Assembly (NCBI GenBank): GCA_963748625.1
Contig: CAVVJT010000007.1
Coordinates: forward strand, 992,001-1,056,000
DNA from: an uncultured Chloroflexia bacterium
Lineage (GTDB): Bacteria > Chloroflexota > Limnocylindria > Limnocylindrales > CSP1-4
Length of the DNA stretch: 64,000 bases
Direction of reading: 5' to 3'
Numbering within the stretch: the stretch's first letter is position 1; every line of letters begins with the position of its first letter. The notes under the pieces were generated by a model. The model worked only from the letters and a program-made list of their open reading frames with translations. It did no database searches and had not been told where the DNA came from. A program made the translations under genes and the position numbers. Below are positions 12,276-24,558 of the stretch, piece by piece.

Positions 12276-12414
12276 CCATCGCGTCGGCGAGCCAGTACAT
12301 CCACAGGACGACGATCGCCGCGAACACCGTGCCGGCGATGGTGATGGCGACCACCGCCCACATCGCGCCCTGCCCTCTTCGAGGCCCGGGTCGACCGTCT
12401 CCCACCCCGTTCAC
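12268..12414 (-). CDS. 48-aa prepilin-like small membrane protein
   Basis: GTG overlaps tadG stop (GTGA); RRGQG followed by one hydrophobic helix. Confidence 0.5.
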   Translation of the reverse strand: MNGVGDGRPGPRRGQGAMWAVVAITIAGTVFAAIVVLWMYWLADAMVS

Positions 12415-14681
12415 GGAGCCACGAGGTGAACGGGGTTGCCCCGGATGTCGACCTTCCAGGTCGTGAGGTCGGTGGCCCCGCTCCCGCTCTGGTTGCCCAT
12501 CGTGTAGCGGATCTTCCACCAGCCATCCTCACCGGAGGCGGGGTCGTTCGGCGCTGTGTAGGAGGTGGGGATCTGGATCTCGAGCGTGAGCCAGCACCCG
12601 TTGAACAGGCTGGTCCCGCCGGTATTGGTGGTCACGGCCCAGACGTTCGACGCGTTGTTGCTGTTGCAGTTGCTGGCGCTGGCGTTGGCTGGGGTCCCGT
12701 CGTAGTCGAACTGCACCGGGGTGAAGCCCGACCCTGTGGGCTTGAGGATCTCCAACGAGGCCGAGAGGTTCCCTGTGTCGCCCGGGTCCCAGAGGTTGAT
12801 CACCATCGTCTTGCCGGCGTGGACGGCGTCGATCTGGGCGAGGTAGAACTCGCTCGCCTGATTGGCAGGGAGGCGCACGTAGGCTTCCATCGCACCGATG
12901 CCGTAGACCCGAGGCGTTCCTCCCGACGCCGAGGCGTAGAGCGCGAACGAGTTGAGTGCGGTTGCATCGTCCTGGTCGTTGAGCGCGCTCTTGTCCGTCG
13001 AGTAGGTGTGCAGCCGGTAGGTCCCGGCCGCCAGCCCGGTCGCCAGCTGGACCCATCCGAAGTGCCAGCTCTGTGACGAACAATCACCCGCCACATTGGT
13101 GGACTGGCTCTTGGCGCCGAAGATCACATGGTCCTCGTATGACAGGCGCCGGTAGGTGTTGCCCGTGGACGCGACGAGCGTGTCATCCGAGGTGTCGAGC
13201 ATCGTCTGGTGCGTGTTCAACAGGTCGAAGTACGCGCTGATCGGGTTGCGGCTCGAGGCGCCGTTGCTTCCACCCACGGTCCAGTACTCGCCGGTGCCGG
13301 CGCTGGACGTGCCGTCGCAGAACCCGGGGTCGTACACCCAGACCGTGCCCCCGCCCCCGGCGGGGATCTCGACGGCGTAGTTGTAGTAGTCGTTGTAGTC
13401 GTAGTACGTGTCCGGGTCCGTCCCGCCGACAGCGTTGGTGACCGACTTGCGGGTCGAATACTTCGTCATGAACGCGTCGCCCTGGATGTTGGGAGCGCCC
13501 TGGCTCTGCATCGCGCCCCAGAACTTCTGGGGGCGGGTGATGGCTGCCTGGCCGGGCGGGGGCGGGACCGGGGCGTCGTCGATCAGCACCGTCGTGGTTG
13601 TGGTCGTGGTGGTGGCCAGGTCCCACGAGACACGAACCTCGAGCATGTCAACGTTGAGCGACGTGCTCGACGATCCGCACCCCTTGTTCGCCGTGAACCG
13701 GACACGGAAGCTCGCGTCCGAGAAGTCGTTTCGGGCCCACGTGCGTGAACCCCACGCCGCAAGGTTGGTGGTAGGCAGTGTGTAGTCGCCATTCGTCGTG
13801 CTGGTGCCCAGGCTTGGCGTCGTCACGCGCGTGGACCAGCTTCCGCCGCCGTTCCACGACAGGTCGACGCCGATCGTGGAGCCCGGGCACGACGCCGACA
13901 CGAAGGCATCCTGCAGCCGGACCTCGATGCCCGTGATCGTGAGCACCTGGTTGCCGCCGGGGCTGGGGATCGCGGACCCGCCGGACAGCAGGCCGAAGTT
14001 GGCCCACTGCTGCTGGTGGCCGTTGGTGGTCTCCTGCGCGTACTCGTTGTTGTTCTGGTTCAGCATCGTGGTGATGGTGCGGCCGGAGCCGGTCGCGGAC
14101 TGGCTCCACTGCCCGCCGCTCGGCGCAGTGCCGGTCGCGACGTCCCACCCGGTGTCGCCTGTGCTGTGCGTCGTATTGGTGGTGGTCGTCGTCTCAGGCT
14201 TCACGAGATACCCGACGCCGTAGTAGTTGTCGGGACTGCCCATCGGAACCGGGAGCACGTAGTCGGCCTTGGCTGTCCGCTGAGCGGGCCACGAATTCAC
14301 GCCGACGACCCCGCTGAAGAACGTGCCCACGGTGCCGCTGATCGACACATTCAGGCGGCGATCGTTGTGCGGGTCGACGCTCGGGGTCACCACGACGCCC
14401 CCCGTGCCGTGGGCGTAGCCGTTCTTCGACGCCTCGGCCCTGGCGACGGTGATGGCCTGGGACGGGTTGCCGGGGAGCCAGACAACGCCGGCAAGGGCCG
14501 CTGCATCGGCTGCACGCTGCATCCGCAGGTTGCCGGTCCAGTACCAGGCGACATCGATGACTACCCCGCAGAGAGCGATGAGGACAACGATCGCTGCTGC
14601 GAAGACCACGACGACCTGACCCCGGCTCCGCGTGCGGCGGAACCCGTGTCCGGACGACCTTCGTGGGAACGTGTTGCGCAT
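12411..14681 (-). CDS. tadG: TadG-like pilus assembly/adhesin protein
   Basis: RGQVVVVFAAAIVVL..VIDV...MQRAADAAALAG Tad domain, followed by a large extracellular region. Confidence 0.8.
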   Translation of the reverse strand: MRNTFPRRSSGHGFRRTRSRGQVVVVFAAAIVVLIALCGVVIDVAWYWTGNLRMQRAADAAALAGVVWLPGNPSQAITVARAEASKNGYAHGTGGVVVTPSVDPHNDRRLNVSISGTVGTFFSGVVGVNSWPAQRTAKADYVLPVPMGSPDNYYGVGYLVKPETTTTTNTTHSTGDTGWDVATGTAPSGGQWSQSATGSGRTITTMLNQNNNEYAQETTNGHQQQWANFGLLSGGSAIPSPGGNQVLTITGIEVRLQDAFVSASCPGSTIGVDLSWNGGGSWSTRVTTPSLGTSTTNGDYTLPTTNLAAWGSRTWARNDFSDASFRVRFTANKGCGSSSTSLNVDMLEVRVSWDLATTTTTTTTVLIDDAPVPPPPGQAAITRPQKFWGAMQSQGAPNIQGDAFMTKYSTRKSVTNAVGGTDPDTYYDYNDYYNYAVEIPAGGGGTVWVYDPGFCDGTSSAGTGEYWTVGGSNGASSRNPISAYFDLLNTHQTMLDTSDDTLVASTGNTYRRLSYEDHVIFGAKSQSTNVAGDCSSQSWHFGWVQLATGLAAGTYRLHTYSTDKSALNDQDDATALNSFALYASASGGTPRVYGIGAMEAYVRLPANQASEFYLAQIDAVHAGKTMVINLWDPGDTGNLSASLEILKPTGSGFTPVQFDYDGTPANASASNCNSNNASNVWAVTTNTGGTSLFNGCWLTLEIQIPTSYTAPNDPASGEDGWWKIRYTMGNQSGSGATDLTTWKVDIRGNPVHLVAP

Positions 14682-14693
14682 GGTTGGTTCGCC

Positions 14694-15311
14694 CTACTGG
14701 CTGAGGGGGTTGAGGGCCATGACCGTCTTGTCGTTGATCTGCAGGCTGCCGCTCCCCGACCCTCCGACCAGCCGCAGGACGTTGCCCAGTGGGGTGCTGA
14801 AGTTGTACGTGTAGGTGATGCGGACGCCGATGCTGTCGGGCGCGGTGGTCGCGTTGCTCCGGGAGCAGGTCGCCCAGCCGTTGCTGGCCGGGGCGGCGAA
14901 GTGCAGCGCCCGGCCGTCAACGGTGGGTCCGCTCCCGGGTGTCCATGTGTTGGTGTTGGACCCGATCGGGTTGCCGGCGCTGTTGGCCTTGTAGATGACG
15001 ATCGAGGAGATGTCACCCAGGTGGTCCCGCACCGGCGACCCCTCCGACGTGAGGACGCGCTCCACCGCCGAGATGACGTACTTGTCGACGTCACCGCAGG
15101 TTGCGGGCGACACAAGCGTCGATCCGTCCGAAAGCGCGGATCCCATGCGCGCCCCCTCGCGCGTGGCGTAGTTCAGCGTCAGCCCGTGGTCGAAGGCGAG
15201 GCCGAACTCCAGGATGCCGAACAGGATCATGATGAAGACCGGCACCACCATCGTGAACTCGACCAGACTCTGGCCGCGTTCACCGGTCCGCCGCACCCAC
15301 GCGCATCTCAC
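14694..15311 (-). CDS. tadE: TadE/TadF-like pseudopilin
   Basis: ERGQSLVEFTMVVPVF..GILEFG..ATREGAR. Confidence 0.85.
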   Translation of the reverse strand: MRCAWVRRTGERGQSLVEFTMVVPVFIMILFGILEFGLAFDHGLTLNYATREGARMGSALSDGSTLVSPATCGDVDKYVISAVERVLTSEGSPVRDHLGDISSIVIYKANSAGNPIGSNTNTWTPGSGPTVDGRALHFAAPASNGWATCSRSNATTAPDSIGVRITYTYNFSTPLGNVLRLVGGSGSGSLQINDKTVMALNPLSQ

Positions 15312-15943
15312 AGGATCGGCTCCATGCGCATCGAGTTGGACTTGATGACCGTCAGGAGCGTCCCAAAGGTGCCGCCCAGCGGCGTCTTCCAGGAGTGGTG
15401 GTACGTGACCCGGACGCCGACGAAATCGAGTGGCTGGCCGCCGCAACCGACAAGGATGTTGCAGCGGTTGGCCATCGGGTAGCCGTTGGCCGTGCGGCTG
15501 TACGGGAGCGTGATCGACGTGCCGTCTGGCAGGGTGCAGGAGTAGGAGCCCGTGCGGGCGTAGATCGTGGAACCGCCGATCTGGCTGCCCGCGGCGTTGG
15601 ATTCGAAGATCTCGACGGTCTGGATCATCGTCCGACCGGCCGGAGGGCCGAAGTCGGCATCGACCGCCTTGAGGACCGCGCAATCGCCACCGGGCGAGTC
15701 ACCGGCCTCCGCCGCGAGGAGCGCTCCATCGCGCGTGGCGTAGTCAGCCGAGAGGACGGCGTTGAACATGAATGCGAACTCGAGCACCCCCATCAGGACC
15801 ATCAGGAAGACGGGGATGACGAGCGCGAACTCGACGAGTGTCTGGCCGCGGGCAGCACGAAGCAGTCGGCCAATCTTGAGCAGCAAACCGTTTCCCCCGG
15901 AAGAGCTGGCACAGATGTGGCGACCGGGCGCTGGGAGCGTCAC
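15308..15943 (-). CDS. tadE: TadE-like pseudopilin
   Basis: RGQTLVEFALVIPVF..GVLEF..ATRDGA. Confidence 0.85.
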   Translation of the reverse strand: MTLPAPGRHICASSSGGNGLLLKIGRLLRAARGQTLVEFALVIPVFLMVLMGVLEFAFMFNAVLSADYATRDGALLAAEAGDSPGGDCAVLKAVDADFGPPAGRTMIQTVEIFESNAAGSQIGGSTIYARTGSYSCTLPDGTSITLPYSRTANGYPMANRCNILVGCGGQPLDFVGVRVTYHHSWKTPLGGTFGTLLTVIKSNSMRMEPIL

Positions 15944-16131
15944 CGAGTCCGATCGCTCAGGCGATCAAATCATGCGAAGTTTGCATACCGCATAACGTTT
16001 CGCAGTTGTGTGCGGCAACGCACCACCCTGCCAGTCGCCTTGGCCTCCGGGACCCGGTGGTTCGTCCTCCATCGGCGCGGGGATTGCCTCACCCGCACCT
16101 TGCCGGGGGCGGGAGGTGAGACGGCAGGGCG

Positions 16132-17379
16132 TCAGCCCTCGCGCTGCTCCGGCACGCCCCGCACCAGCACCAGGCCGATCAGCATCGAGATGAGCAGGGT
16201 GACGATCCCGAGCTGGTACGTGGCGACCCCGAGGGTGTTGAAGAACAGCAGGAAGGTCAGGGACCAGAACAGCGAACCGAGCACCTGGGATCCCTTGCCC
16301 ACAAGGCCGTAGAGGCCGTAGAACTCGCCGAGCCGCTCAGGGGGCGAGAGCCGGTACATGAGCACGCGGTCCGCCACCTGCATCCCGGAGAACCCCGCCC
16401 CGATCGCGATGCCCGCGGCCAGGAAGATGATCTTGTCCAGGAAGATCGCGCCGACCGCCAGGGCGACCGCCCACATGCACAGCACGATGAACAGGGTCTG
16501 CTTGGGCCCCCAGCGGTCGGTCAGCTTGCCCCACATGAAGCCGGCGGCGATCGCTGCCAGCGTAAGGCCCAGGAACACCATCGACGATTCCGTCTCGGTG
16601 AACCCGATGGCGCGGACGGCGAATACGGTCATGATCGTGATGCTCGTGTTGAGCGCGTCGGTGTAGAAGAAGCGGGCCAGCAGGAAGCGGCCCAGGCCCG
16701 GGTAGCGGTCCAGCGAGCGCACGGTGTCCCAGGTGGCCCGCCAGGCGGCGGACATCGCCCGGTCGTGGCTCCCGCCCGCGGCGGGCTCGCGGATCACCAG
16801 GAAGATGGGGATGGCGAACACCATGAACAGGACCGGGGCCAACAGGAACGCCTGCTCGGGAGCCATGCCCGTGATCACGATCGTGAGCGCGATCAGCACG
16901 GTGCCCATGTAGCCGACGGCGCTGCCGAGGCCCGAGACCCATCCCCGGTTCTCCGGCATGCTCACCAGTTTGAGCGTGGCGTCGTAGTAGATCAGCGCCG
17001 ACTGGTAGCCGAAGTTGGCCACGCAGAAGAGGAGCACGCCCATGGTGACGTCCACGAACGGGATGGCCATCGCGGGGATGCAGGCCAGCAGGGTGAAGCC
17101 GAACAGGAACGGCAGGCGCCGCCCGAAGCGGTCGGATAGCGCACCCAGCCACGGGGAGACGGCCGCGTTGACGAGGACGGAGATCGCGACCGCGAGCGTC
17201 AGTGCGGAGTTGCCGCCCTGGTCGCCCAGCCTGGCGACGAGATACAGCCCGACCGCCCAGGAGAAGACGGCGTAGGACCAGATCGTGTTCGCGAAGTCAT
17301 AGAGGGCCCACGAGCCGACTGCAACGCGGCGCAGGTTCGGATCACGCTGCGGGACCGCCGTCGCCGGGACTGCCGTCAT
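16132..17379 (-). CDS. MFS transporter (UMF1/Atg22-like)
   Basis: SWALYDFANT, GALSDRFGRR, about 12 TM segments, GEFYGLY. Confidence 0.88.
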   Translation of the reverse strand: MTAVPATAVPQRDPNLRRVAVGSWALYDFANTIWSYAVFSWAVGLYLVARLGDQGGNSALTLAVAISVLVNAAVSPWLGALSDRFGRRLPFLFGFTLLACIPAMAIPFVDVTMGVLLFCVANFGYQSALIYYDATLKLVSMPENRGWVSGLGSAVGYMGTVLIALTIVITGMAPEQAFLLAPVLFMVFAIPIFLVIREPAAGGSHDRAMSAAWRATWDTVRSLDRYPGLGRFLLARFFYTDALNTSITIMTVFAVRAIGFTETESSMVFLGLTLAAIAAGFMWGKLTDRWGPKQTLFIVLCMWAVALAVGAIFLDKIIFLAAGIAIGAGFSGMQVADRVLMYRLSPPERLGEFYGLYGLVGKGSQVLGSLFWSLTFLLFFNTLGVATYQLGIVTLLISMLIGLVLVRGVPEQREG

Positions 17380-17485
17380 GTGCTGTCGCCTCGTGGTGTG
17401 CCTGGATCCCCGCCTCGGCCGGATCATACGGGCCGGGGAAGGTTCCGATCGGACGGTCCCGCGTGGAGCGCGGTAGCATGCGACC

Positions 17486-18235
17486 ATGGCAATCGAACCG
17501 ACCGCCCGCGAGATCGCGGCAGCCTGGGAGCCCCAGCGGCCCGGCCGCCGTGCCGCGAAGGACATCGTGGATCCCCTGGTGGAGCCGGCCTGGGGTGGCG
17601 TGCGCGTGGTGGCGGCGATCACGATCGACGAGGCAGCGCTCTACCGCGCCGGGGAGGAGCTGCCTGCGCCTCCGCTGATCCTTGCAGCGCTCGTCGAAGG
17701 GTTCACCGCCGTGGACGCGGTCGTCGAGGGCCATCTCACCACCAAGGCGCTCGGAGACGGCACGGGTGCCGGTGCCCCGATGGCCAAGGTTGAGCGGCCG
17801 CCGCTCCTGGTTCCACGCGGGCTCTTCAAGAGCGTGCGGGACGACCCCTACGTCAAGGCACGCGACTATGCGAACCGGGAGGCGGAGGTCGCCCGAACCG
17901 TGCTCGAGGCGATCGAGGACGGGGTGCCTCACGCGTTCGTCGCCACGGACCTGCTGTGGCTGGACGGCACGCCGCTTGACGACGTTCCCCTGCTCGAGCG
18001 ACGGCGCCTGCTGGAGGGTGCGCTTGTCGCCTCGGAGCTGGTGCGGGTCTCGCCGACCGTGAAGGCCACTGCCATGCTGACGCTCGTCACCTGGGGCCAG
18101 CTGGGATTCGCCGAGATCTCGTACCGGGCGGCCAACAGCCGGTATGCGGCAGGCGAGGAGAACCCGGACTGGGCCGTGACCCGGCCGCCGGATGGTCCGC
18201 AGGGTCCCTCGAACGGACCGGTCACGGCAAAGTAG
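17486..18235 (+). CDS. ATP-dependent DNA ligase adenylation-domain homolog, catalytically degenerate
   Basis: DLLWLDG..PLLERRRLLE and SRY..G...DW are retained, but motif I KxDG reads EPAWGG; no OB domain. Confidence 0.7.
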   Translation: MAIEPTAREIAAAWEPQRPGRRAAKDIVDPLVEPAWGGVRVVAAITIDEAALYRAGEELPAPPLILAALVEGFTAVDAVVEGHLTTKALGDGTGAGAPMAKVERPPLLVPRGLFKSVRDDPYVKARDYANREAEVARTVLEAIEDGVPHAFVATDLLWLDGTPLDDVPLLERRRLLEGALVASELVRVSPTVKATAMLTLVTWGQLGFAEISYRAANSRYAAGEENPDWAVTRPPDGPQGPSNGPVTAK

Positions 18236-18307
18236 GCGTTCGGCGCGCGACGCCGTCGGGGCTGGCGCCCACGCCCGGGGTCGCGCGGGAGTGGTAGGGT
18301 GGGGCGG

Positions 18308-19678
18308 ATGCCTCCCTCGACGCTGTCCCCCGAGATCCGCGAGCAGATCACGCGCCTGGGGCGTGCCGACATCATGGTCGGGATCCCCAGCTTCAAGAAC
18401 GCGGCCACCATCGGCTACGTGGTCAGGGCCGCCCATGCCGGCCTCGTCCAGTACTTCCCGGACCTCAAGCCGGTCCTGGTGAACTCCGACGCCGGGTCGT
18501 CTGACGGCACCCAGCGCGTCGTCATCGAGACCGAGCCGCCCGAGTACGTGGAGTCGATCCTGCTGGTCCGGCCCACCAACAAGCTCGACCGGGTGACGAT
18601 CACCTACCCCGAGATCGAGGGGACCGGTGGCAAGGGTGCCGCCCTGCGGGCGATCTTCGAGATCGCGGCCGCGCTCGACGTCCAGGCGCTGGTGGTGGTG
18701 GACTCGGACCTGCGCAGCATCGTGCCGGAGTGGATCGAGCTGCTGGCCGGGCCCATCCTCAAGGGCGGGTACGACTACGTCGCCCCGCTGTACTCGCGCT
18801 ACAAGTACGACGGGACCATCACCAACACGGTCACCTATCCGCTGACGCGCGCCCTGTACGGGCACCGGATCCGCCAGCCCATCGGCGGAGACTTCGGCGT
18901 GTCGGGCGATCTCGTCCGCCACTACCTGGAGCTGGATGACTGGACGCCGGAGATCAGCAAGTTCGGCATCGACATCTGGATGACCACGTCCGCGCTCACC
19001 GGCGGCTTCGCCGTCTGCCAGGCACGCCTGGGGGCGAAGGTCCACGATCCCAAGGATCCCGGCTCCGACCTGGGGCCGATGTTCCGCCAGGTCGTGTCCA
19101 CGATCCTCCGGCTGGCCGTGGCCCATCCCGACAGCTGGCTGGGCGTGCGCGGCTCCCACGACGTCCCCGCGTACGGCTTCGAGCGGATCATCGACCCGCC
19201 GCCGCTCGAGGTGAACGCGATCCGCCTGCTGGAGCAGTTCCATGCAGGCTCGCTCACCCTGGCGGACACGTGGCGGCGGATGCTGGCCCCAGCGAACGTG
19301 GAGCGGGTGCTCGCCCTCGCTGCAGACGCAGGCACGATGAGCGAGACGGCCTCGACCAGGCTGGGCATCGGCAGCGAGAGCGACGACCGCCATCCCGACA
19401 CCGCCACGATGGCAGAAGCGCTTGCGGGCTTCCACTTCCCCGACGACCTCTGGGCCCGCGTGGTCTACGACCTGGTCCTCGCCGTCCGCAAGGGCGACCT
19501 GGAGACAGGCGCGATGGTCGCGGCCCTCGTGCCGATCTACTTTGGCCGGGTGGGCAGCTTCGTGATCGAGAACCGGCACCTGACGACCGCCGACGCCGAG
19601 GAGCGGGTGGAGCGCCAGGCCCGGCAGTTCGAGCTCGACAAGGCCTACCTGGTGGAGCGCTGGGAGGCAGGCGCATGA
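18308..19678 (+). CDS. GT-A glycosyltransferase, glucosylglycerate/mannosylglycerate synthase-like
   Basis: GIPSFKNAATI, NSDAGSSDGT, GKG, VVDSDLRS, YDGTITN, RIRQPIGGDFG, FGIDIWMT. Confidence 0.75.
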   Translation: MPPSTLSPEIREQITRLGRADIMVGIPSFKNAATIGYVVRAAHAGLVQYFPDLKPVLVNSDAGSSDGTQRVVIETEPPEYVESILLVRPTNKLDRVTITYPEIEGTGGKGAALRAIFEIAAALDVQALVVVDSDLRSIVPEWIELLAGPILKGGYDYVAPLYSRYKYDGTITNTVTYPLTRALYGHRIRQPIGGDFGVSGDLVRHYLELDDWTPEISKFGIDIWMTTSALTGGFAVCQARLGAKVHDPKDPGSDLGPMFRQVVSTILRLAVAHPDSWLGVRGSHDVPAYGFERIIDPPPLEVNAIRLLEQFHAGSLTLADTWRRMLAPANVERVLALAADAGTMSETASTRLGIGSESDDRHPDTATMAEALAGFHFPDDLWARVVYDLVLAVRKGDLETGAMVAALVPIYFGRVGSFVIENRHLTTADAEERVERQARQFELDKAYLVERWEAGA

Positions 19679-21594
19679 GCGGTGAACCGCTTCCGTCCCG
19701 CGTGGTCATTCCGGTCGCGAACCCGCTCACCGCCGAGGAGCTGATCCGGATCGGCGCGTCCCTCATGGACGAGCGCACCGGCGAGCTGACCGCCCTGGGC
19801 ATCGTCGAGGTTCCCGAGGGCATGCCGCTCTCGGAGGGCGCGACGCGTGCCCGGCAGGCCCGGCGGCTCCTCCAGAAGGTGATGGACTACGTCCCCGAGG
19901 GGACGGTCATCCATCCCCTGGTCCGCATCGGGCGGCATGCCGCGGCCGGCATCGTGGAGGCGGCGGCGGAACAGGATGCCGATCTCCTGATCTTCGGCTG
20001 GGGCGGCAAGTCCGGCCCGCACCGGGACCCCAGCGGGCCGACCATCTCGCCCACGATCGACGAGGTCGTGCGCGAGTCGCCCTGCGACATCGCGGTGGTC
20101 AAGCAGCGGGGCGCCCGGGACATCCGCCGCATCCTCGTCCCCGTCCGCGGTGGCCCCCACGCCGAGCTGGCCCTGCGCTTCGCGGATGCGCTGGCCCACC
20201 GCCACGACGCCACCGTGGTGGTGATGCACCTGGTGCCCGCGGGCGTCACCGAGGCCGTCCGGGCCCAAGCCGAGCGAGCGCTGGCCGCCTTCGTGCGGCA
20301 GTTCGTCACGGCGAAGGCCGAGCCGCTCCTGCGCGAGGCGGCCAACGTGCGCAACGCCATCCTGCGCGAGGCTGAGAACGCGGACCTCGTGGTCATGGGC
20401 GCCTCGGCCCCGCCAGGCGAGCCCGGCGGCACGCTGTTCGGCGCCCTGCCGGAGGCGATCGCCCAGCGTGCCAAGCCAACGGTCATCGTGGTCAAGACCC
20501 GTGACCCGATCAGCCGCCAGACCTTCGAGCAGCTCGCCGGCCGCGCCGAGACCCTGGCCGCCGCCGACCGCGCCGCCGAGGAGTCCCGCGCGGTCCCGGC
20601 CAAGGTGGACCGCTGGTTCGCCGAGGCCAACTTCCACCACTCCGAGTTCGCGGACCTCGGCCGTCTCGTGGCGCTCAAGCAGAAGCAGGGCATCACGGTG
20701 AGCCTGGTGCTGCCAACGCTCAACGAGTCGGAGACGATCGGGCCCATCGTCCGGCGCGCGGTGAAGGAGATGCAGGAGCGCTACCCGCTCCTCGACGAGA
20801 TCCTCGTGATCGATTCCGCGTCCGAGGACGACACCCGCGAGATCGCCGAGTCCGAGGGCGCCCGCGTCGTCCAGCACCCGGACGTCCTCGCCCGCTACGG
20901 CTCGTACCGCGGCAAGGGCGAGGCGCTCTGGAAGTCCCTGTACGAGACATCGGGCGACATCATCGTCTGGGCCGACACGGACGTCCGCAACTGGCACCAC
21001 CGCATGGTCTACGGCACGCTCGGCCCGCTGCTGGTGGAGCCGCGTCTCAAGTACGTGAAGGGCTACTACCAGCGCCCTATCGTGGAGGGCGGCGTCCTGA
21101 AGGAGGGCGGCGGCGGCCGGGTCACGGAGCTGGTCGCACGGCCGCTGATCAACCTGTTCTTCCCGGAGCTGTCGGGCCTGATCCAGCCGCTCTCGGGCGA
21201 ATACGCCGGCCGGCGGTCGCTGCTCGAGCAGATCCCGTTCTTCACCGGGTACGCCGTGGAGATCGGGCACCTGATCGATGTCCTCGACAAGGCCGGCCTG
21301 GGCGGGCTCGGCCAGGTGGACCTGGAGCGGCGCGTACACCGCAACCAGGAGCTCGAAGGACTCTCGCGGATGTCGTTCGTGATCCTGCAGGCCGTGATGA
21401 AGCGGCTCGAGGAGCGGCGGCGCGCGCGGCTGTTCGCGGAGCTGGGCCACACCATGAAGTTGCCGCGCTCGGGCAAGGGCCGGCTCTCGCTCGAGGTGCA
21501 GGAGGTCGCCGACCACGAGCGGCCGCCGATGATCCGCATCCCTGAGTACCTGGAGCGGCGGGCGGCCCGGGACGCCGGCGACGCGGCGGACTAG
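19675..21594 (+). CDS. gpgS: Glucosyl-3-phosphoglycerate synthase with two N-terminal universal stress protein domains
   Basis: Two USP domains (VVIPVAN..DLLIFGW..SPCDIAVVK; ILVPVRGGPHA..DLVVMGA), then LPTLNE, GKGEALWKSL, GGRVTELVARPL, QPLSGEYA, GYAVEIG. Confidence 0.85.
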   Translation: MSGEPLPSRVVIPVANPLTAEELIRIGASLMDERTGELTALGIVEVPEGMPLSEGATRARQARRLLQKVMDYVPEGTVIHPLVRIGRHAAAGIVEAAAEQDADLLIFGWGGKSGPHRDPSGPTISPTIDEVVRESPCDIAVVKQRGARDIRRILVPVRGGPHAELALRFADALAHRHDATVVVMHLVPAGVTEAVRAQAERALAAFVRQFVTAKAEPLLREAANVRNAILREAENADLVVMGASAPPGEPGGTLFGALPEAIAQRAKPTVIVVKTRDPISRQTFEQLAGRAETLAAADRAAEESRAVPAKVDRWFAEANFHHSEFADLGRLVALKQKQGITVSLVLPTLNESETIGPIVRRAVKEMQERYPLLDEILVIDSASEDDTREIAESEGARVVQHPDVLARYGSYRGKGEALWKSLYETSGDIIVWADTDVRNWHHRMVYGTLGPLLVEPRLKYVKGYYQRPIVEGGVLKEGGGGRVTELVARPLINLFFPELSGLIQPLSGEYAGRRSLLEQIPFFTGYAVEIGHLIDVLDKAGLGGLGQVDLERRVHRNQELEGLSRMSFVILQAVMKRLEERRRARLFAELGHTMKLPRSGKGRLSLEVQEVADHERPPMIRIPEYLERRAARDAGDAAD

Positions 21595-21641
21595 GGGCGT
21601 GGAGCCCGGCGGCGTGGGTCCCACGGCAGGCACGTGCGGGC

Positions 21642-21839
21642 GGGGCTTCCCAAGCCCCGATTTCGACGGTGCGCCGTCCGAATGGGGCTCCCGAAGCCAC
21701 GAAACGGCGGCCGCAGGCCCGACGCGGCGTCGTTTTGGGGCTCCCGAAGCCACGAGACGGCGGTCGAGGCACGGAATCGGGGCTTCCGGTGCCCCGGACG
21801 CGGCGCCGGGCGCCCCGGACGCGGCGCGGGCTCCCAGCC
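21642..21839. repeat. Cluster of REP-like hairpin repeats (GGGGCT...GCCMC)
   Basis: Hairpin units start at 21642, 21684, 21737 and 21779; units 2 and 3 nearly identical over about 28 nt. Confidence 0.65.
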
Positions 21840-21855
21840 GTCGGAGCCGCACGTG

Positions 21856-23019
21856 ATGCGTGTCCTGATCGCCCCGGACTCCTTCAAGGGGACGCTCACC
21901 TCGGTCCAGGTCGCCGAGGCGCTTGCTGAGGGCTGGCGCCGGGCGCGTCCGGACGACGAGGTGGCGCTGGCGCCCCTGGCCGACGGCGGCGAGGGCACGC
22001 TGGTGGCGGTGCACGCAGCCGGCGGCTGGACGTGGCGCGAGGCACGGGCCCACGACCCGCTGGGCCGCCCGTGCACGGCACGCTGGCTCGCGAGGGACGA
22101 TGGGCGGGCGGCATTCGTGGAGATGGCGCAGGCCAGCGGGCTCTCGCTGGTGGACCCCGATGAACGCGACCCGGTCGCCGCCACGACGCTCGGCACGGGC
22201 GAGGTCCTCCGCGCTGTGCTGGACGCTGGGATCCGCGAGATCGCGCTGGGCATCGGCGGCTCCGCGACCACGGATGGCGGGGCGGGCATGCTGCGCGCGC
22301 TGGGCGCCCAGGTGCGCGAGGAGCTGGGCGGCGTTGACCTGGCCGGACTCGACCCGCGCTTGGCTGGTGTCCACCTGCGGATCGCGTCAGATGTGACCAA
22401 CCCGCTCCTCGGCGAGCGCGGTGCGGCCGCGGTCTACGGACCCCAGAAGGGCGCCGACCGGGCGACCGTCGCCCTCCTCGACGCGCGCCTCACGCGGTAT
22501 GCCGACGCCCTGGAGGCAGCAGCCGGCCGCCGCGAGCGCGAGACCCCGGGCACGGGCGCCGCGGGCGGCCTGGGCTTCAGCCTGCTGTGCCTGCGCGACC
22601 GGTTCGCGTCCCTGGAGCTTGTCCCCGGCATCGATCTCGTGATGGCCGAGGCCGGCTTCGACAAGGCCCTCTCCCGCGCGGACCTCGTCATCACCGGCGA
22701 AGGGCGGATCGACGGCCAGACCGCGTTCGGCAAGACTGCGATGGGCGTCGCTCGTCGTGCCCAGGCAGCCGGCGTGCGCTGCATCGGCGTGGGCGGCGGC
22801 GTCACGCCAGAGGGGTTCGAGGCCCTGGCCCAGGCCGAGGCCGAGGCGGTCCCGGTGCACGAGACCCCCGTGACCCTCGAGGCGGCGATTGCGGCGGGTA
22901 CCGCGCCCGTCGTCGCCTGCGGAGAGCGCCTGGCGCGGCGCCAGCCGGGGAGCGATCGCGTCGTGATCGGCGATGACGTCGATGCGCCCGTCGCCGACTT
23001 CGAAGAGTCGCAGGCTTGA
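21856..23019 (+). CDS. glxK: Glycerate kinase (GlxK/GarK family)
   Basis: IAPDSFKG, PLADGGEGT, GIGGSATTDGGAG, VYGPQKGA, GAAGGLG, VITGEGRID.QT..GK. Confidence 0.92.
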   Translation: MRVLIAPDSFKGTLTSVQVAEALAEGWRRARPDDEVALAPLADGGEGTLVAVHAAGGWTWREARAHDPLGRPCTARWLARDDGRAAFVEMAQASGLSLVDPDERDPVAATTLGTGEVLRAVLDAGIREIALGIGGSATTDGGAGMLRALGAQVREELGGVDLAGLDPRLAGVHLRIASDVTNPLLGERGAAAVYGPQKGADRATVALLDARLTRYADALEAAAGRRERETPGTGAAGGLGFSLLCLRDRFASLELVPGIDLVMAEAGFDKALSRADLVITGEGRIDGQTAFGKTAMGVARRAQAAGVRCIGVGGGVTPEGFEALAQAEAEAVPVHETPVTLEAAIAAGTAPVVACGERLARRQPGSDRVVIGDDVDAPVADFEESQA

Positions 23020-23044
23020 CCTAGTCCACCGGTTAGTCCACCAT
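23016..23044 (+). promoter_or_regulatory. Putative promoter/operator of vapBC
   Basis: TTGACC-17 bp-CACCAT with two direct repeats TAGTCCACC (23022, 23034); ATG 7 nt downstream, likely leaderless. Confidence 0.55.
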
Positions 23045-23051
23045 GGCTGCC

Positions 23052-23315
23052 ATGGACACCGTCGTCAACATCCACGAGGCCAAGACGCACTTCTCGCGGC
23101 TGGTCGAACGGGCAGAGAAGGGCGAGCGGATCACCATTGCGCGTGCCGGTGTCCCGGTCGCGATGCTTGTCGCGATCGAGCCCAAGACACCCCTCGGGCG
23201 GCCGATCGGGATCGACAAGGGGAAGATCATCATCCACGACGACTTCGATGATCCCCTTCCCGAGTTCGAGGAGTGGATGGAGAAGTCGATCTTCCCGGAG
23301 CCGGACGGCGAGTGA
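23052..23315 (+). CDS. vapB: Phd/YefM-family antitoxin
   Basis: VNIHEAKTHFSRLVERAEKGERITIARAGVPVA...DDFDDPLP. Confidence 0.9.
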   Translation: MDTVVNIHEAKTHFSRLVERAEKGERITIARAGVPVAMLVAIEPKTPLGRPIGIDKGKIIIHDDFDDPLPEFEEWMEKSIFPEPDGE

Positions 23316-23698
23316 GGCTCCTGCTCGACACGCACACGTTCCTCTGGGCGGCCGCGGACAACCCTCGACTCTCCCCTCGGGCCCGCGCGCTGATCAATGA
23401 CCAGTCGACCGAGCTGGTCCTGAGCTCGGTGGCGGCCGCGGAAGTCGCCCTCAAGGTCGCGAAGGGCCGTCTCGAGCTCCCGGAAGAACCCGCGCGGTGG
23501 TTCACGTTGCGCATGCGTGCCTTCGGAGTAACCGAGCTGCCGTTGACGATCGCCCACGCGCTCGCGGCGGCGTCGCTTCCGCCGATTCACGGTGATCCTT
23601 GGGATCGCTTCCTCGTCGCCCAGGCCCGGGCAGAATCGATCCCGATCCTGACAGCCGACACCATCCTCCACCGCTACGAGGTCGAGATCCTGTGGTGA
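23312..23698 (+). CDS. vapC: VapC PIN-domain toxin
   Basis: LLLDTHTFLW, HGDPWDRFLVAQA, ILTAD; overlaps antitoxin stop. Confidence 0.92.
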   Translation: MRLLLDTHTFLWAAADNPRLSPRARALINDQSTELVLSSVAAAEVALKVAKGRLELPEEPARWFTLRMRAFGVTELPLTIAHALAAASLPPIHGDPWDRFLVAQARAESIPILTADTILHRYEVEILW

Positions 23699-24558
23699 CC
23701 GCCAAGCCGGCGACCGAGAAGCCCGCGCCGAAGAAGCCCGCCACCAAGAGGAAGCCGGCCAAGCGCACCCGCAAGCCCGCTGACCCGGCGCAGCAGTGGG
23801 CCGGATACCTGCGGCGCTACCGGCCCGGCCTCCAGTCCTTCGTGCTGGACGGCCTCACCCGCCAGTACGGGGAGCAGACCTGGCACAAGTCGCGCCTGGA
23901 CCCCACCAGCGAGTTGATCCTCACGATCCTCACCCAGAACACGGCCGACGTGAACGCCGAGAAGGCGTACGAGGCCCTGCGTGCCGCCTACGCCTCCGAC
24001 AACGCCCCTGAGATCCACCGCCCCGACATCGGCTGGGGCGGGGGCGGGTTGGGCGACGCACCGCCGCCGGACTGGTCGCACGTGGAGAACGCACCCCTGC
24101 CCGAGCTCGTCGACGTGATCCGGCCCGGCGGCCTCGCACCCCAGAAGGCGCCTCGCCTCCAGGCGACCCTGCGGCACATCCGCGAGCAGCGCGGTGACTA
24201 CAGCCTCGAGTTCCTGGGCGACATGCCCGCCCTCGACGCCCGCGACTGGCTGACCTCCATCGACGGCGTCGGGAAGAAGACCGCGTCGATCGTGCTCGCG
24301 TTCTGCTTCGGCATGCCGCTGATGGCGGTGGACCGCCACGTGGAGCGGGTGAGCAAGCGCATCGGCCTGATCCCCGAGAAGGCGACAGCGGACCAGGCCC
24401 ACGACCTGTACCTGGGCATCCTGGAGCCTGACCAGATGTACGCCGGGCACGTGCTGCTGATCCACCACGGGCGCGAGCTCTGCCACGCCCAGAACCCCAA
24501 GCACGACCTGTGCCCGCTGCGCGACCGCTGCCGGGCCGTGGACAGGAAGGCCCCTTGA
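23695..24558 (+). CDS. nth: Endonuclease III (HhH-GPD DNA glycosylase)
   Basis: ILTILTQNTAD, IDGVGKKTA, AVDRHVERV, C-terminal Fe-S motif (C-x6-H-x2-C-x5-C). Confidence 0.88.
   Translation: MTAKPATEKPAPKKPATKRKPAKRTRKPADPAQQWAGYLRRYRPGLQSFVLDGLTRQYGEQTWHKSRLDPTSELILTILTQNTADVNAEKAYEALRAAYASDNAPEIHRPDIGWGGGGLGDAPPPDWSHVENAPLPELVDVIRPGGLAPQKAPRLQATLRHIREQRGDYSLEFLGDMPALDARDWLTSIDGVGKKTASIVLAFCFGMPLMAVDRHVERVSKRIGLIPEKATADQAHDLYLGILEPDQMYAGHVLLIHHGRELCHAQNPKHDLCPLRDRCRAVDRKAP

Follow-up and report, generated by a model that had tools for sequence, protein, structure and literature searches.

The bacterial classes of ATP-dependent DNA ligase, LigB, LigC, LigD and LigE, are all active and combine at least a nucleotidyltransferase (NT or NTase) domain with an OB domain, as described in the accessible portion of PMC7470946. 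In LigD, individual residues have been assigned roles in the reaction (PMC8656161): K481 serves as nucleophile, E479 and K618 as adenine contacts and R486 as a ribose contact, while E530 reaches the ribose via a water molecule. E613 binds the catalytic Mg, and R501, R629, K635 and K637 contact phosphates, with R501 reaching the gamma-phosphate of ATP as well as the ribose (PMC8656161). Here we analyze a 64,000-nucleotide stretch of DNA (the window) from an uncultured bacterium of the class Limnocylindria in the phylum Chloroflexota (assembly GCA_963748625.1, contig CAVVJT010000007.1, positions 992,001 to 1,056,000). It carries a real, expressed-looking gene for a stand-alone protein, termed PSL-A, that comes from an NTase domain of the LigD type and has lost the catalytic residues.

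A preliminary description of the window had reported an intact open reading frame (ORF) of 249 codons, and a frame of that length, beginning with ATG, was recovered on the forward strand (Table 1). The G+C content of the window is 70.6%, and the chance of an open frame of 249 codons there is about 4%; therefore, the homologs, and not the frame itself, carry the evidence for PSL-A. The G+C content at the three codon positions (0.77, 0.51 and 0.85) has the pattern of coding DNA, with a third-position value (GC3) below the 0.94 of neighboring genes. A word-indexed search, in which 8000 candidates were scored, yielded 1620 homologs at E ≤ 1e-3. The best 120 of these are 240 to 287 residues long and 55 to 99% identical, and 4 of the 120 have a precomputed PF01068 annotation. 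An exhaustive search of cluster representatives yielded 251 matches at E ≤ 1e-3, including 119 at E ≤ 1e-10.

Table 1. Positions of PSL-A, its motifs and related features (window numbering except for PSL-B; + is the forward strand).
Feature	Position	Strand	Remarks
PSL-A coding sequence	17486..18235	+	ATG start; 249 residues; LigD-derived NTase-fold protein without catalytic residues
-10-like box TAGCAT	17474..17479	+	6 nt before the PSL-A ATG (17486); suggests a leaderless mRNA
Motif I remnant EPAWGGVR	17582..17605	+	E33 and R40 kept; Lys replaced by A35, Asp by G37
Motif III remnant VEGHLT	17723..17740	+	Ribose-contacting Glu replaced by H83
Insertion absent from ligases	17741..17845	+	Predicted disordered; ERPPxLxPR invariant in the window's subgroup; gapped in ligases
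Motif IIIa FVATDLLWLDG	17936..17968	+	Thr where the genome's LigD ligases carry Phe
Helix PLLERRRLLE	17987..18016	+	Common to LigD ligases
Motif IV remnant AEISYR	18110..18127	+	Metal-binding Glu replaced by Ala (A209); adenine-contacting Lys by Arg
Motif V remnant WAVTR	18170..18184	+	First Lys replaced by Val (V231), second by Arg (R233)
Extended -10-like box TGGTAGGGT	18292..18300	+	7 nt before the GT459 ATG (18308); promoter of the neighbor, not part of PSL-A
GT459	18308..19678	+	457 residues; distant GpgS-like glycosyltransferase; usual downstream neighbor of PSL-A
HhH-GPD/EndoIII-type glycosylase	~23596-24558		~5.6 kb downstream of PSL-A
PSL-B (P0305)	G000 contig 4, ~596443-597345 (L005:1282-2184)		Second ligase-domain protein lacking the Lys; outside the window

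The structural motifs DLLWLDG, PLLERRRLLE and SRYAAGEENPDW are present as first described, and the readings of the motifs hold up when PSL-A is aligned by MAFFT with LigD ligases of the same genome and by profile with Mycobacterium tuberculosis LigD. Residues E33-P34-A35-W36-G37-G38-V39-R40 align with the ligase motif I, E-x-K-W-D-G-x-R. The codons had been read correctly as GCC for A35 (17588-17590) and GGT for G37 (17594-17596). The accompanying argument that these are not single-base errors stands for the lysine, whose change to alanine needs several substitutions, but not for the aspartate, since GAY becomes GGT by a single base. Motif III reads VEGH in place of DGE, motif IIIa reads FVATDLLWLDG in place of FxAFDLLYLDG, and motif IV was rightly read as AEISYR, aligned with the ligase EGIVAK. 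Motif V had been said to lack its lysines, which is correct for WAVTR compared with the ligase WLKIK, although one basic residue, R233, stays at the second position. There is indeed no OB domain: the chain stops 16 residues past motif V and has no PF04679 match. However, the region was wrongly taken to be free of indels, because PSL-A has an insertion of about 25 to 30 residues relative to ligases between motifs III and IIIa (residues ~86-120).

PSL-A matches one Pfam family, PF01068 (DNA_ligase_A_M), with a score of 18.2 bits (E = 0.0021) that is under the gathering cut-off of 26.2 bits. Some relatives exceed this cut-off (42.5, 36.5 and 47.2 bits), and 41 of 43 diverse members match PF01068 at E ≤ 0.01, with none matching another Pfam family. 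Eleven NCBIfam ligase models also match PSL-A, all far under their cut-offs, the best being the LigD-type NF007210 and TIGR02779. Scans with PADLOC and PHROGs gave no match, and there is no PSL-A-specific model in Pfam, NCBIfam, PADLOC or PHROGs; likewise, a lookup in the ESM Atlas found no entry for the PSL-A sequence or for one homolog tried. An AlphaFold2 model made from 29 homologs has a mean predicted local distance difference test score (pLDDT) of 83 and a predicted template modeling score of 0.81, with pLDDT below 50 at residues 91-111 and 240-249. In a Foldseek search with this model, 95 PDB chains matched at E ≤ 1e-3, and all 50 of those listed are ATP-dependent DNA ligases. The best matches are archaeal ligases (4eq5, E = 3.6e-10, query-normalized TM score 0.59; 2cfm, TM score 0.61), and M. 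tuberculosis LigD is also matched (1vs0, E = 5.9e-7; 6nhz, E = 2.5e-6). When a profile of the family was compared with PDB sequences, LigD and archaeal ligases were again matched (best E = 1.2e-4), and the match to M. tuberculosis LigD covers the C-terminal half (E = 5.8e-4). The predicted fold of PSL-A is thus that of the NTase domain of ATP-dependent DNA ligases.

Residue usage was counted in 284 non-identical PSL-A sequences, assembled from collected proteins of 200 to 300 residues and from translated loci that carry the pattern E[PG]xWxG, with true ligases excluded. Within this set the invariance of E33, W36 and G38 is partly by construction of the pattern. However, E33, P34 and W36 are also invariant in two alignments free of this selection, A1 (29 sequences) and A2 (43 sequences, 29 to 49% identical to the query), and every row has Glu at the E479 position. 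The Lys position of the invariant E-P-x-W is variable in both alignments, and the orthologs thus lack KxDG. In the 284 sequences, the K481 position holds D in 109, A in 42, L in 39, E in 36, V in 26 and Q in 8, and the D483 position is G in 131, followed by V, A, D, E and S. The E530 position is most often H (100) or Y (74). At the E613 position R (99), G (28) and A (26) are found, with E in just 17; the R629 position is E in 144. The two motif V positions hold V (132) or I (73) in place of K635, and R (141), P (49) or K (25) at K637. Lys occurs at the nucleophile position in 4 of 241 collected pattern-bearing proteins. Three of these four are true LigD-type ligases, with EPKWDG, EGIVAK and WLKIK; the fourth, P0176, is of the PSL type and has Ser replacing the motif I Asp.

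Every contact that LigD makes with the ATP phosphates or the catalytic metal is therefore lost in PSL-A or turned acidic or charge-reversed. Judged by these residues, the lysine-adenylylation chemistry is gone from the whole family, the positive charge of the cleft has been lost, and PSL-A should be unable to adenylylate itself or to seal nicks in the way that ligases do. By comparison, the R486 position is kept (R in 269 of 284) and the K618 position is kept basic (R in 175, K in 99). Of the ligand contacts, all four subgroups keep just the adenosine-contacting E33, R40 and K/R214; the core fold residues are kept as well. Twenty-nine positions are conserved at 90% identity or more over the 284 sequences. 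Nearly all of them are common to LigD, with only R187, W203 and N217 specific to PSL-A, and the family retains nearly all of the non-catalytic conserved residues of the ligase NTase domain.

PSL-A was scored in 61 Limnocylindria genomes, all metagenome-assembled genomes (MAGs), as a short PSL-type ORF at E ≤ 1e-25, and it is present in 50 of them. By family, it was found in 15 of 17 genomes of f1 in addition to the window's own genome, in 17 of 19 of f69, in 16 of 20 of f3, in the single genome of f70, and in none of the three genomes of f2, which are 1.1 to 1.2 Mb in size. In a sample of 301 genomes from the phylum, PSL-type matches occur in f1 and f3 only, and elsewhere only ligase-sized ORFs were found; these tallies include three unpublished genomes (G173, G272 and G038), from which no locus was used. 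The best 80 loci among species genomes comprise 76 from MAGs named as Chloroflexota, Chloroflexia or Limnocylindria(-ales), two from 'Anaerolineaceae' and two from 'Verrucomicrobiia', with no cultured organism among them. The members in f69 and f70 (L131-L138) are shorter, lack most of the insertion, keep the motif IIIa Phe and have the motif I form ILEP(E/A)WxGTR.

PSL-A is under purifying selection. Among 65 extracted coding sequences, the ratio of nonsynonymous to synonymous substitution rates (dN/dS, Nei-Gojobori method) was determined for all 35 pairs with 75 to 99.5% amino acid identity, and it is below 1 in every pair (0.11 to 0.52, median 0.22). The all-pairs value (median 0.73) was discarded, as dS plateaus near 0.55-0.6 in these G+C-rich genes.

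The -10 box that had been proposed for PSL-A is conserved. In 47 of the 52 loci that could be scored (start codon placeable, at least 45 nt upstream), a TANNNT sequence such as TAGCAT, TAGGAT or TACGAT ends 4 to 9 nt, mostly 6 or 7 nt, before the start, and just 15 of the 52 have a Shine-Dalgarno-like word. A distinct element, TGGTA(G/C)GGT, precedes the start of GT459, mostly by 6 to 7 nt (4 to 9 nt), in 54 of 56 loci, 4 of which have a Shine-Dalgarno-like word. A scan of 17200-18500 for consensus two-hexamer promoters and terminators found nothing, and the boxes become visible only by comparison of loci. PSL-A and GT459 are probably each transcribed as a leaderless mRNA from a promoter of their own. 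An Rfam scan of 16000-24000 produced nothing credible, its one match having an E-value of 0.76.

With an enzyme fold kept, catalytic residues lost throughout the family and purifying selection acting, PSL-A is a pseudoenzyme in the operational sense. It is not a ligase by the features that define one, because it lacks the nucleophile, the metal and phosphate contacts and the OB domain, and this copy does not reach the Pfam cut-off. The loss of KxDG, the dN/dS values and a fold search in which every listed chain is a ligase bear out the earlier proposal of a repurposed non-catalytic protein rather than a decaying pseudogene. We lean, though not strongly, toward the reading that PSL-A is a functional non-catalytic binder that acts on its own, and consider any particular ligand far less likely than this general reading. 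It would serve as a non-enzymatic binding module and not as a subunit of its gene neighbors or of the Ku/LigD machinery. One candidate working surface is the remnant adenosine pocket formed by E33, R40 and K/R214, with its phosphate side erased. A second may be the ERPPxLxPR motif of the insertion, a putative docking site for a protein partner. E103-R-P105-P106-x-L-x-P110-R is the strongest PSL-specific conservation in the window's subgroup, and G94, E103, P105, P106 and P110 are invariant in A1, inside the low-pLDDT stretch 91-111. Invariance within an insertion predicted to be disordered is the pattern of a docking motif. A bolder version, in which PSL-A, and perhaps PSL-B (see below), would be the first bacterial ligase-fold pseudoenzyme with a sensing or adaptor role, its pocket binding an uncharged or cationic adenosine-type ligand and its ERPPxLxPR loop relaying this to a partner, is a long shot.

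Several observations weigh against a self-standing binder. PSL-A was not found in 11 of the 61 class genomes, and its role is therefore dispensable. It evolves faster than its neighbor: compared with the copies in the window, PSL-A has a median identity of 51% and GT459 one of 84% at the same loci, and in five pairs with both genes dN/dS is 0.18-0.31 for PSL-A versus 0.08-0.20 for GT459. E33, R40 and K/R214 may be kept for fold stability alone. The motif IIIa Phe of the genome's LigD ligases presumably stacks on adenine, and this position is non-aromatic in most PSL-A members (T 156, V 81, F 11 of 284), and this counts against the adenine pocket being intact. Only the window's subgroup has the ERPPxLxPR motif, which the wider family (A2) does not conserve. 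Finally, the tight adjacency to GT459 described next could still reflect a functional link in the lineages that have it.

GT459 is a distant relative of glucosyl-3-phosphoglycerate synthase (NF010496, E = 2.5e-15; GpgS structures in the PDB, E ~1e-8). The next gene encodes a fusion of universal-stress-protein and GpgS domains (Usp-GpgS) that scores 370.9 bits with NF010496, compared with a cut-off of 262, and its start overlaps the end of GT459 by 4 nt. A glycerate kinase gene matching TIGR00045 lies downstream of Usp-GpgS, and the three genes form a conserved cluster (window 18292-23019). This gene content suggests a glucosylglycerate-type solute metabolism in Limnocylindria, and our literature search found nothing on GpgS and glycerate kinase in Chloroflexi. 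On the other side of PSL-A, on the opposite strand, lie an ATG22/MFS transporter gene and TadE/TadG-like genes. Three genes on the minus strand (window 12411-15943) have TadE or Tad(E/G)-like N-terminal domains of the Flp-pilus pseudopilin type, and the product of one, with 756 residues, has long Thr-rich stretches. Several metagenome contigs also have relatives of these genes in the vicinity of PSL-A, although neither the distance nor the strand is constant.

Gene neighborhoods were compared in 79 loci, 20 from species genomes and 59 from metagenome contigs. The contigs were found with alignment A1, whereas a query with a single protein had found none. Fifty-nine of the 79 loci have at least 400 nt downstream of PSL-A, and in 52 of these GT459 follows in the same orientation, after a median gap of 55 nt. 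The exceptions are four loci with no GT459 in the 433 to 835 nt available (L075, L084, L076 and L100), one with a gap of 1.5 kb (L043), and L045 and L050. The same adjacency holds in 18 of the 20 species genomes of f1 and f3. The cluster is also real, as the Usp-GpgS score above its cut-off and the TIGR00045 glycerate kinase attest, and GT459 and Usp-GpgS overlap by 4 nt. Thus PSL-A might be an accessory or regulatory subunit of the GT459, Usp-GpgS and glycerate kinase cluster that, for example, senses or presents a nucleotide-sugar or an adenine nucleotide.

We consider such a subunit role unlikely. The -10 box of GT459 (54 of 56 loci) makes separate transcripts probable. Twelve genomes from other families of the phylum carry GT459 and gave no PSL-type match, 5 class genomes carry it without PSL-A, and no PSL ORF was found within ~3 kb upstream of GT459 in 15 of 15 such PSL-A-free loci. 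Conversely, PSL-A occurs without an adjoining GT459. In two genomes (G022 and G229) it stays between genes for a DEAD-box helicase and an HhH-GPD protein while GT459 lies elsewhere, and in all eight f69 and f70 loci no GT459, DEAD-box helicase or HhH-GPD gene was found within ~5 kb. Three of these eight loci were scanned against Pfam, and the neighbors proved to be an SPFH/Band7 gene, accompanied by NfeD at one locus, and a glutamate dehydrogenase gene; a DinG-like helicase-exonuclease gene is close by in two of the three. PSL-A thus occupies three different neighborhoods within the class.

The flanking genes are collinear as well, and the adjacency may be plain inherited gene order. In f3 the block runs DEAD-box helicase, PSL-A, GT459, Usp-GpgS, glycerate kinase and HhH-GPD (L044-L054), and the same block without the helicase is collinear across f1. 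In three f3 genomes in which PSL-A was not found (G058, G097 and G142), the helicase gene abuts GT459. Because the block is collinear, each gene occurs apart and the f69 and f70 loci differ, adjacency of PSL-A and GT459 is weak evidence of shared function, and PSL-A shows neither the constant co-occurrence nor the co-transcription that would mark it as a member of the cluster. Of the synteny suggested in the preliminary description, the glycosyltransferase part is conserved in two of the four PSL-A-bearing families, although that gene has its own promoter and occurs without PSL-A. The MFS part does not extend further, as an MFS gene beside PSL-A was found in the window only.

A second alternative assigns PSL-A to nonhomologous end joining (NHEJ), as a binder of DNA ends or nicks or as a modulator of LigD/Ku end joining, in the manner of a dominant-negative or scaffolding copy of the LigD domain. 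PSL-A descends from LigD-type ligases and has surface elements in common with them, such as PLLERKRLL and SRYxPG..W. The nearest concept found in the literature is the catalysis-independent action of yeast Dnl4, which still supports end joining when catalytically dead, according to the available part of PMC3694833. The window's genome is rich in NHEJ genes, with four full ATP-dependent ligases, each with an OB domain, and two Ku genes beside two of them; some 5.6 kb downstream of PSL-A there is also a gene for an HhH-GPD glycosylase. However, these Ku and ligase genes are all far from PSL-A, and no Ku or LigD gene is next to PSL-A in any of the loci examined. Moreover, PSL-A is retained in two genomes that yielded no Ku, although completeness below 100% leaves some doubt on these negatives: in G187 (95% complete) it is the only PF01068 match, and G245 (93% complete) has two other ligases. 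This weakens the NHEJ modulator that had been offered as one option.

The properties of the protein point the same way. The family is acidic (median isoelectric point 5.35, net charge -6; 4.9 and -9 for the window's copy) in comparison with six LigD NTase domains (5.98, -2). LigD R501, which we take to lie in the DNA-contacting motif Ia, has no conserved counterpart (R in 112 of 284), and the phosphate-binding cleft is neutral or acidic. PSL-A also lacks the OB domain, and NT plus OB is the minimal DNA-joining scaffold in the part of PMC7470946 available. By the NCBIfam matches and the tree, the nearest relatives of PSL-A are LigD ligase domains, but PSL-A has no fusion to POL or PE domains, no adjacent Ku gene and no constant co-occurrence with Ku. 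The Ku-less genomes, the acidic charge and the non-conservation of R501 tell against any Ku/LigD-linked role and against classical nick binding, and we regard this alternative as doubtful.

PSL-A could also still be an NTase-fold enzyme, one that has changed its nucleophile or works non-covalently. It keeps the adenosine-contact triad, its fold is strongly conserved, and in other superfamilies there is the precedent of pseudokinases that were later found to be enzymes. However, no new conserved polar constellation has appeared, as only R187, W203 and N217 are specific to PSL-A, and the Lys, both Glu and the motif V Lys positions are variable rather than swapped for one alternative, which makes this very unlikely. 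That PSL-A is a decaying or neutral, functionless remnant of a ligase gene is already contradicted and deserves next to no credence, since its faster evolution, lower GC3 and the 11 class genomes in which it was not found are outweighed by full-length, stop-free copies in four families of one class, dN/dS below 1 in all 35 close pairs, 29 positions at least 90% identical over 284 sequences and a conserved promoter box.

The non-catalytic binder that we favor would not be the only ligase-domain protein of these bacteria without the lysine. PSL-B, encoded elsewhere in the same genome, is a stand-alone NTase domain of about 250 to 265 residues without an OB domain; it has 1638 homologs and scores above the PF01068 cut-off (54.6 bits). 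Its motif I reads FEPTWGGHR in 115 of 121 sequences (the query and 120 listed homologs) and FEPSWGGHR in four more. DGE of motif III and FDL of motif IIIa are kept, the Glu and Lys of motif IV are replaced by Ala and Arg, and motif V reads LWRsI. PSL-B was found in f1 only, where 14 of 18 genomes have it, the window's own among them, and the few source names given limit it to Limnocylindria MAGs. Its neighbors, S9 peptidases and an ABC-2 membrane protein, give no clue to its role.

Thirty-five rows (16 PSL-A, 8 PSL-B and 11 ligase NTase domains) were placed in a maximum-likelihood tree with the 1023-residue ligase of the window's genome as its root. The tree recovers PSL-A as one group (support 100/99) with a stem of 1.52 changes per column and PSL-B as one group (support 100/100) with a stem of 1.29. 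Both join the clade of the class's own LigD ligases at a fork that the tree leaves unresolved. By this tree, PSL-A is placed among the LigD-type ligases of the phylum, on a long branch, and loss of the lysine once or twice in PSL-A and PSL-B cannot be told apart.

Two candidates related to the architecture of PSL-A were considered and rejected. A search for longer homologs found no fused form of PSL-A, and the one longer homolog, P0304, is a frameshifted read-through of PSL-A and GT459. No orphan OB-domain protein completes PSL-A in the window's genome, as all four PF04679 matches there sit in ligase ORFs.

A full-text literature search found no paper on a bacterial ligase-like protein that is inactive or lacks the lysine. 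The PSL-A family is both large and old, with a second family of the kind alongside it; yet its hosts, bacteria of soil and fresh water, are all uncultured, and it is fast-evolving and dispensable. In the source annotations, PSL-A members are labeled 'ATP-dependent DNA ligase' and PSL-B members 'bifunctional NHEJ protein LigD'. Such labels lead to overcounting of ligases and of NHEJ genes among the MAGs of Chloroflexota. Should a ligand or partner of PSL-A be found, it would show reuse of the ligase fold after loss of its chemistry.

Among known and related proteins, PSL-B resembles PSL-A in consisting of the NTase domain alone and in the replacement of the motif I Lys and Asp. It differs in that its Lys position is a conserved Thr or Ser (119 of 121), its motif III Glu and motif IIIa Phe are kept, and its sequence is better conserved, with terminal branches of about 0.1 compared with 0.17 to 1.04 in PSL-A (most of them at least 0.6 outside the window's subgroup). 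The LIG domain of LigD (M. tuberculosis, 1VS0 and 6NHZ) has the same NTase fold as PSL-A and has E-x-x-W-x-G-x-R, FxAxDLLxLDG, PLxERKxLL and SRYxPG....W in common with it. In contrast to LigD, PSL-A has no equivalents of Lys481, Asp483, Glu530, Glu613, Arg629, Lys635 and Lys637, no OB, POL or PE domains and no Ku linkage, and it carries the extra insertion of ~25-30 residues. The ligases of Thermococcus and Pyrococcus and human LIG1, LIG3 and LIG4 are 9 to 20% identical to PSL-A and are three-domain, active enzymes. LigC and LigE are, like PSL-A, small stand-alone bacterial proteins of the same superfamily, but they have NT and OB domains, catalytic motifs and activity, whereas PSL-A has the NT domain alone and no catalytic residues; as far as the accessible portion of PMC7470946 sets out the scheme of LigB, LigC, LigD and LigE, a class-wide, NT-only family without the nucleophile falls outside it.

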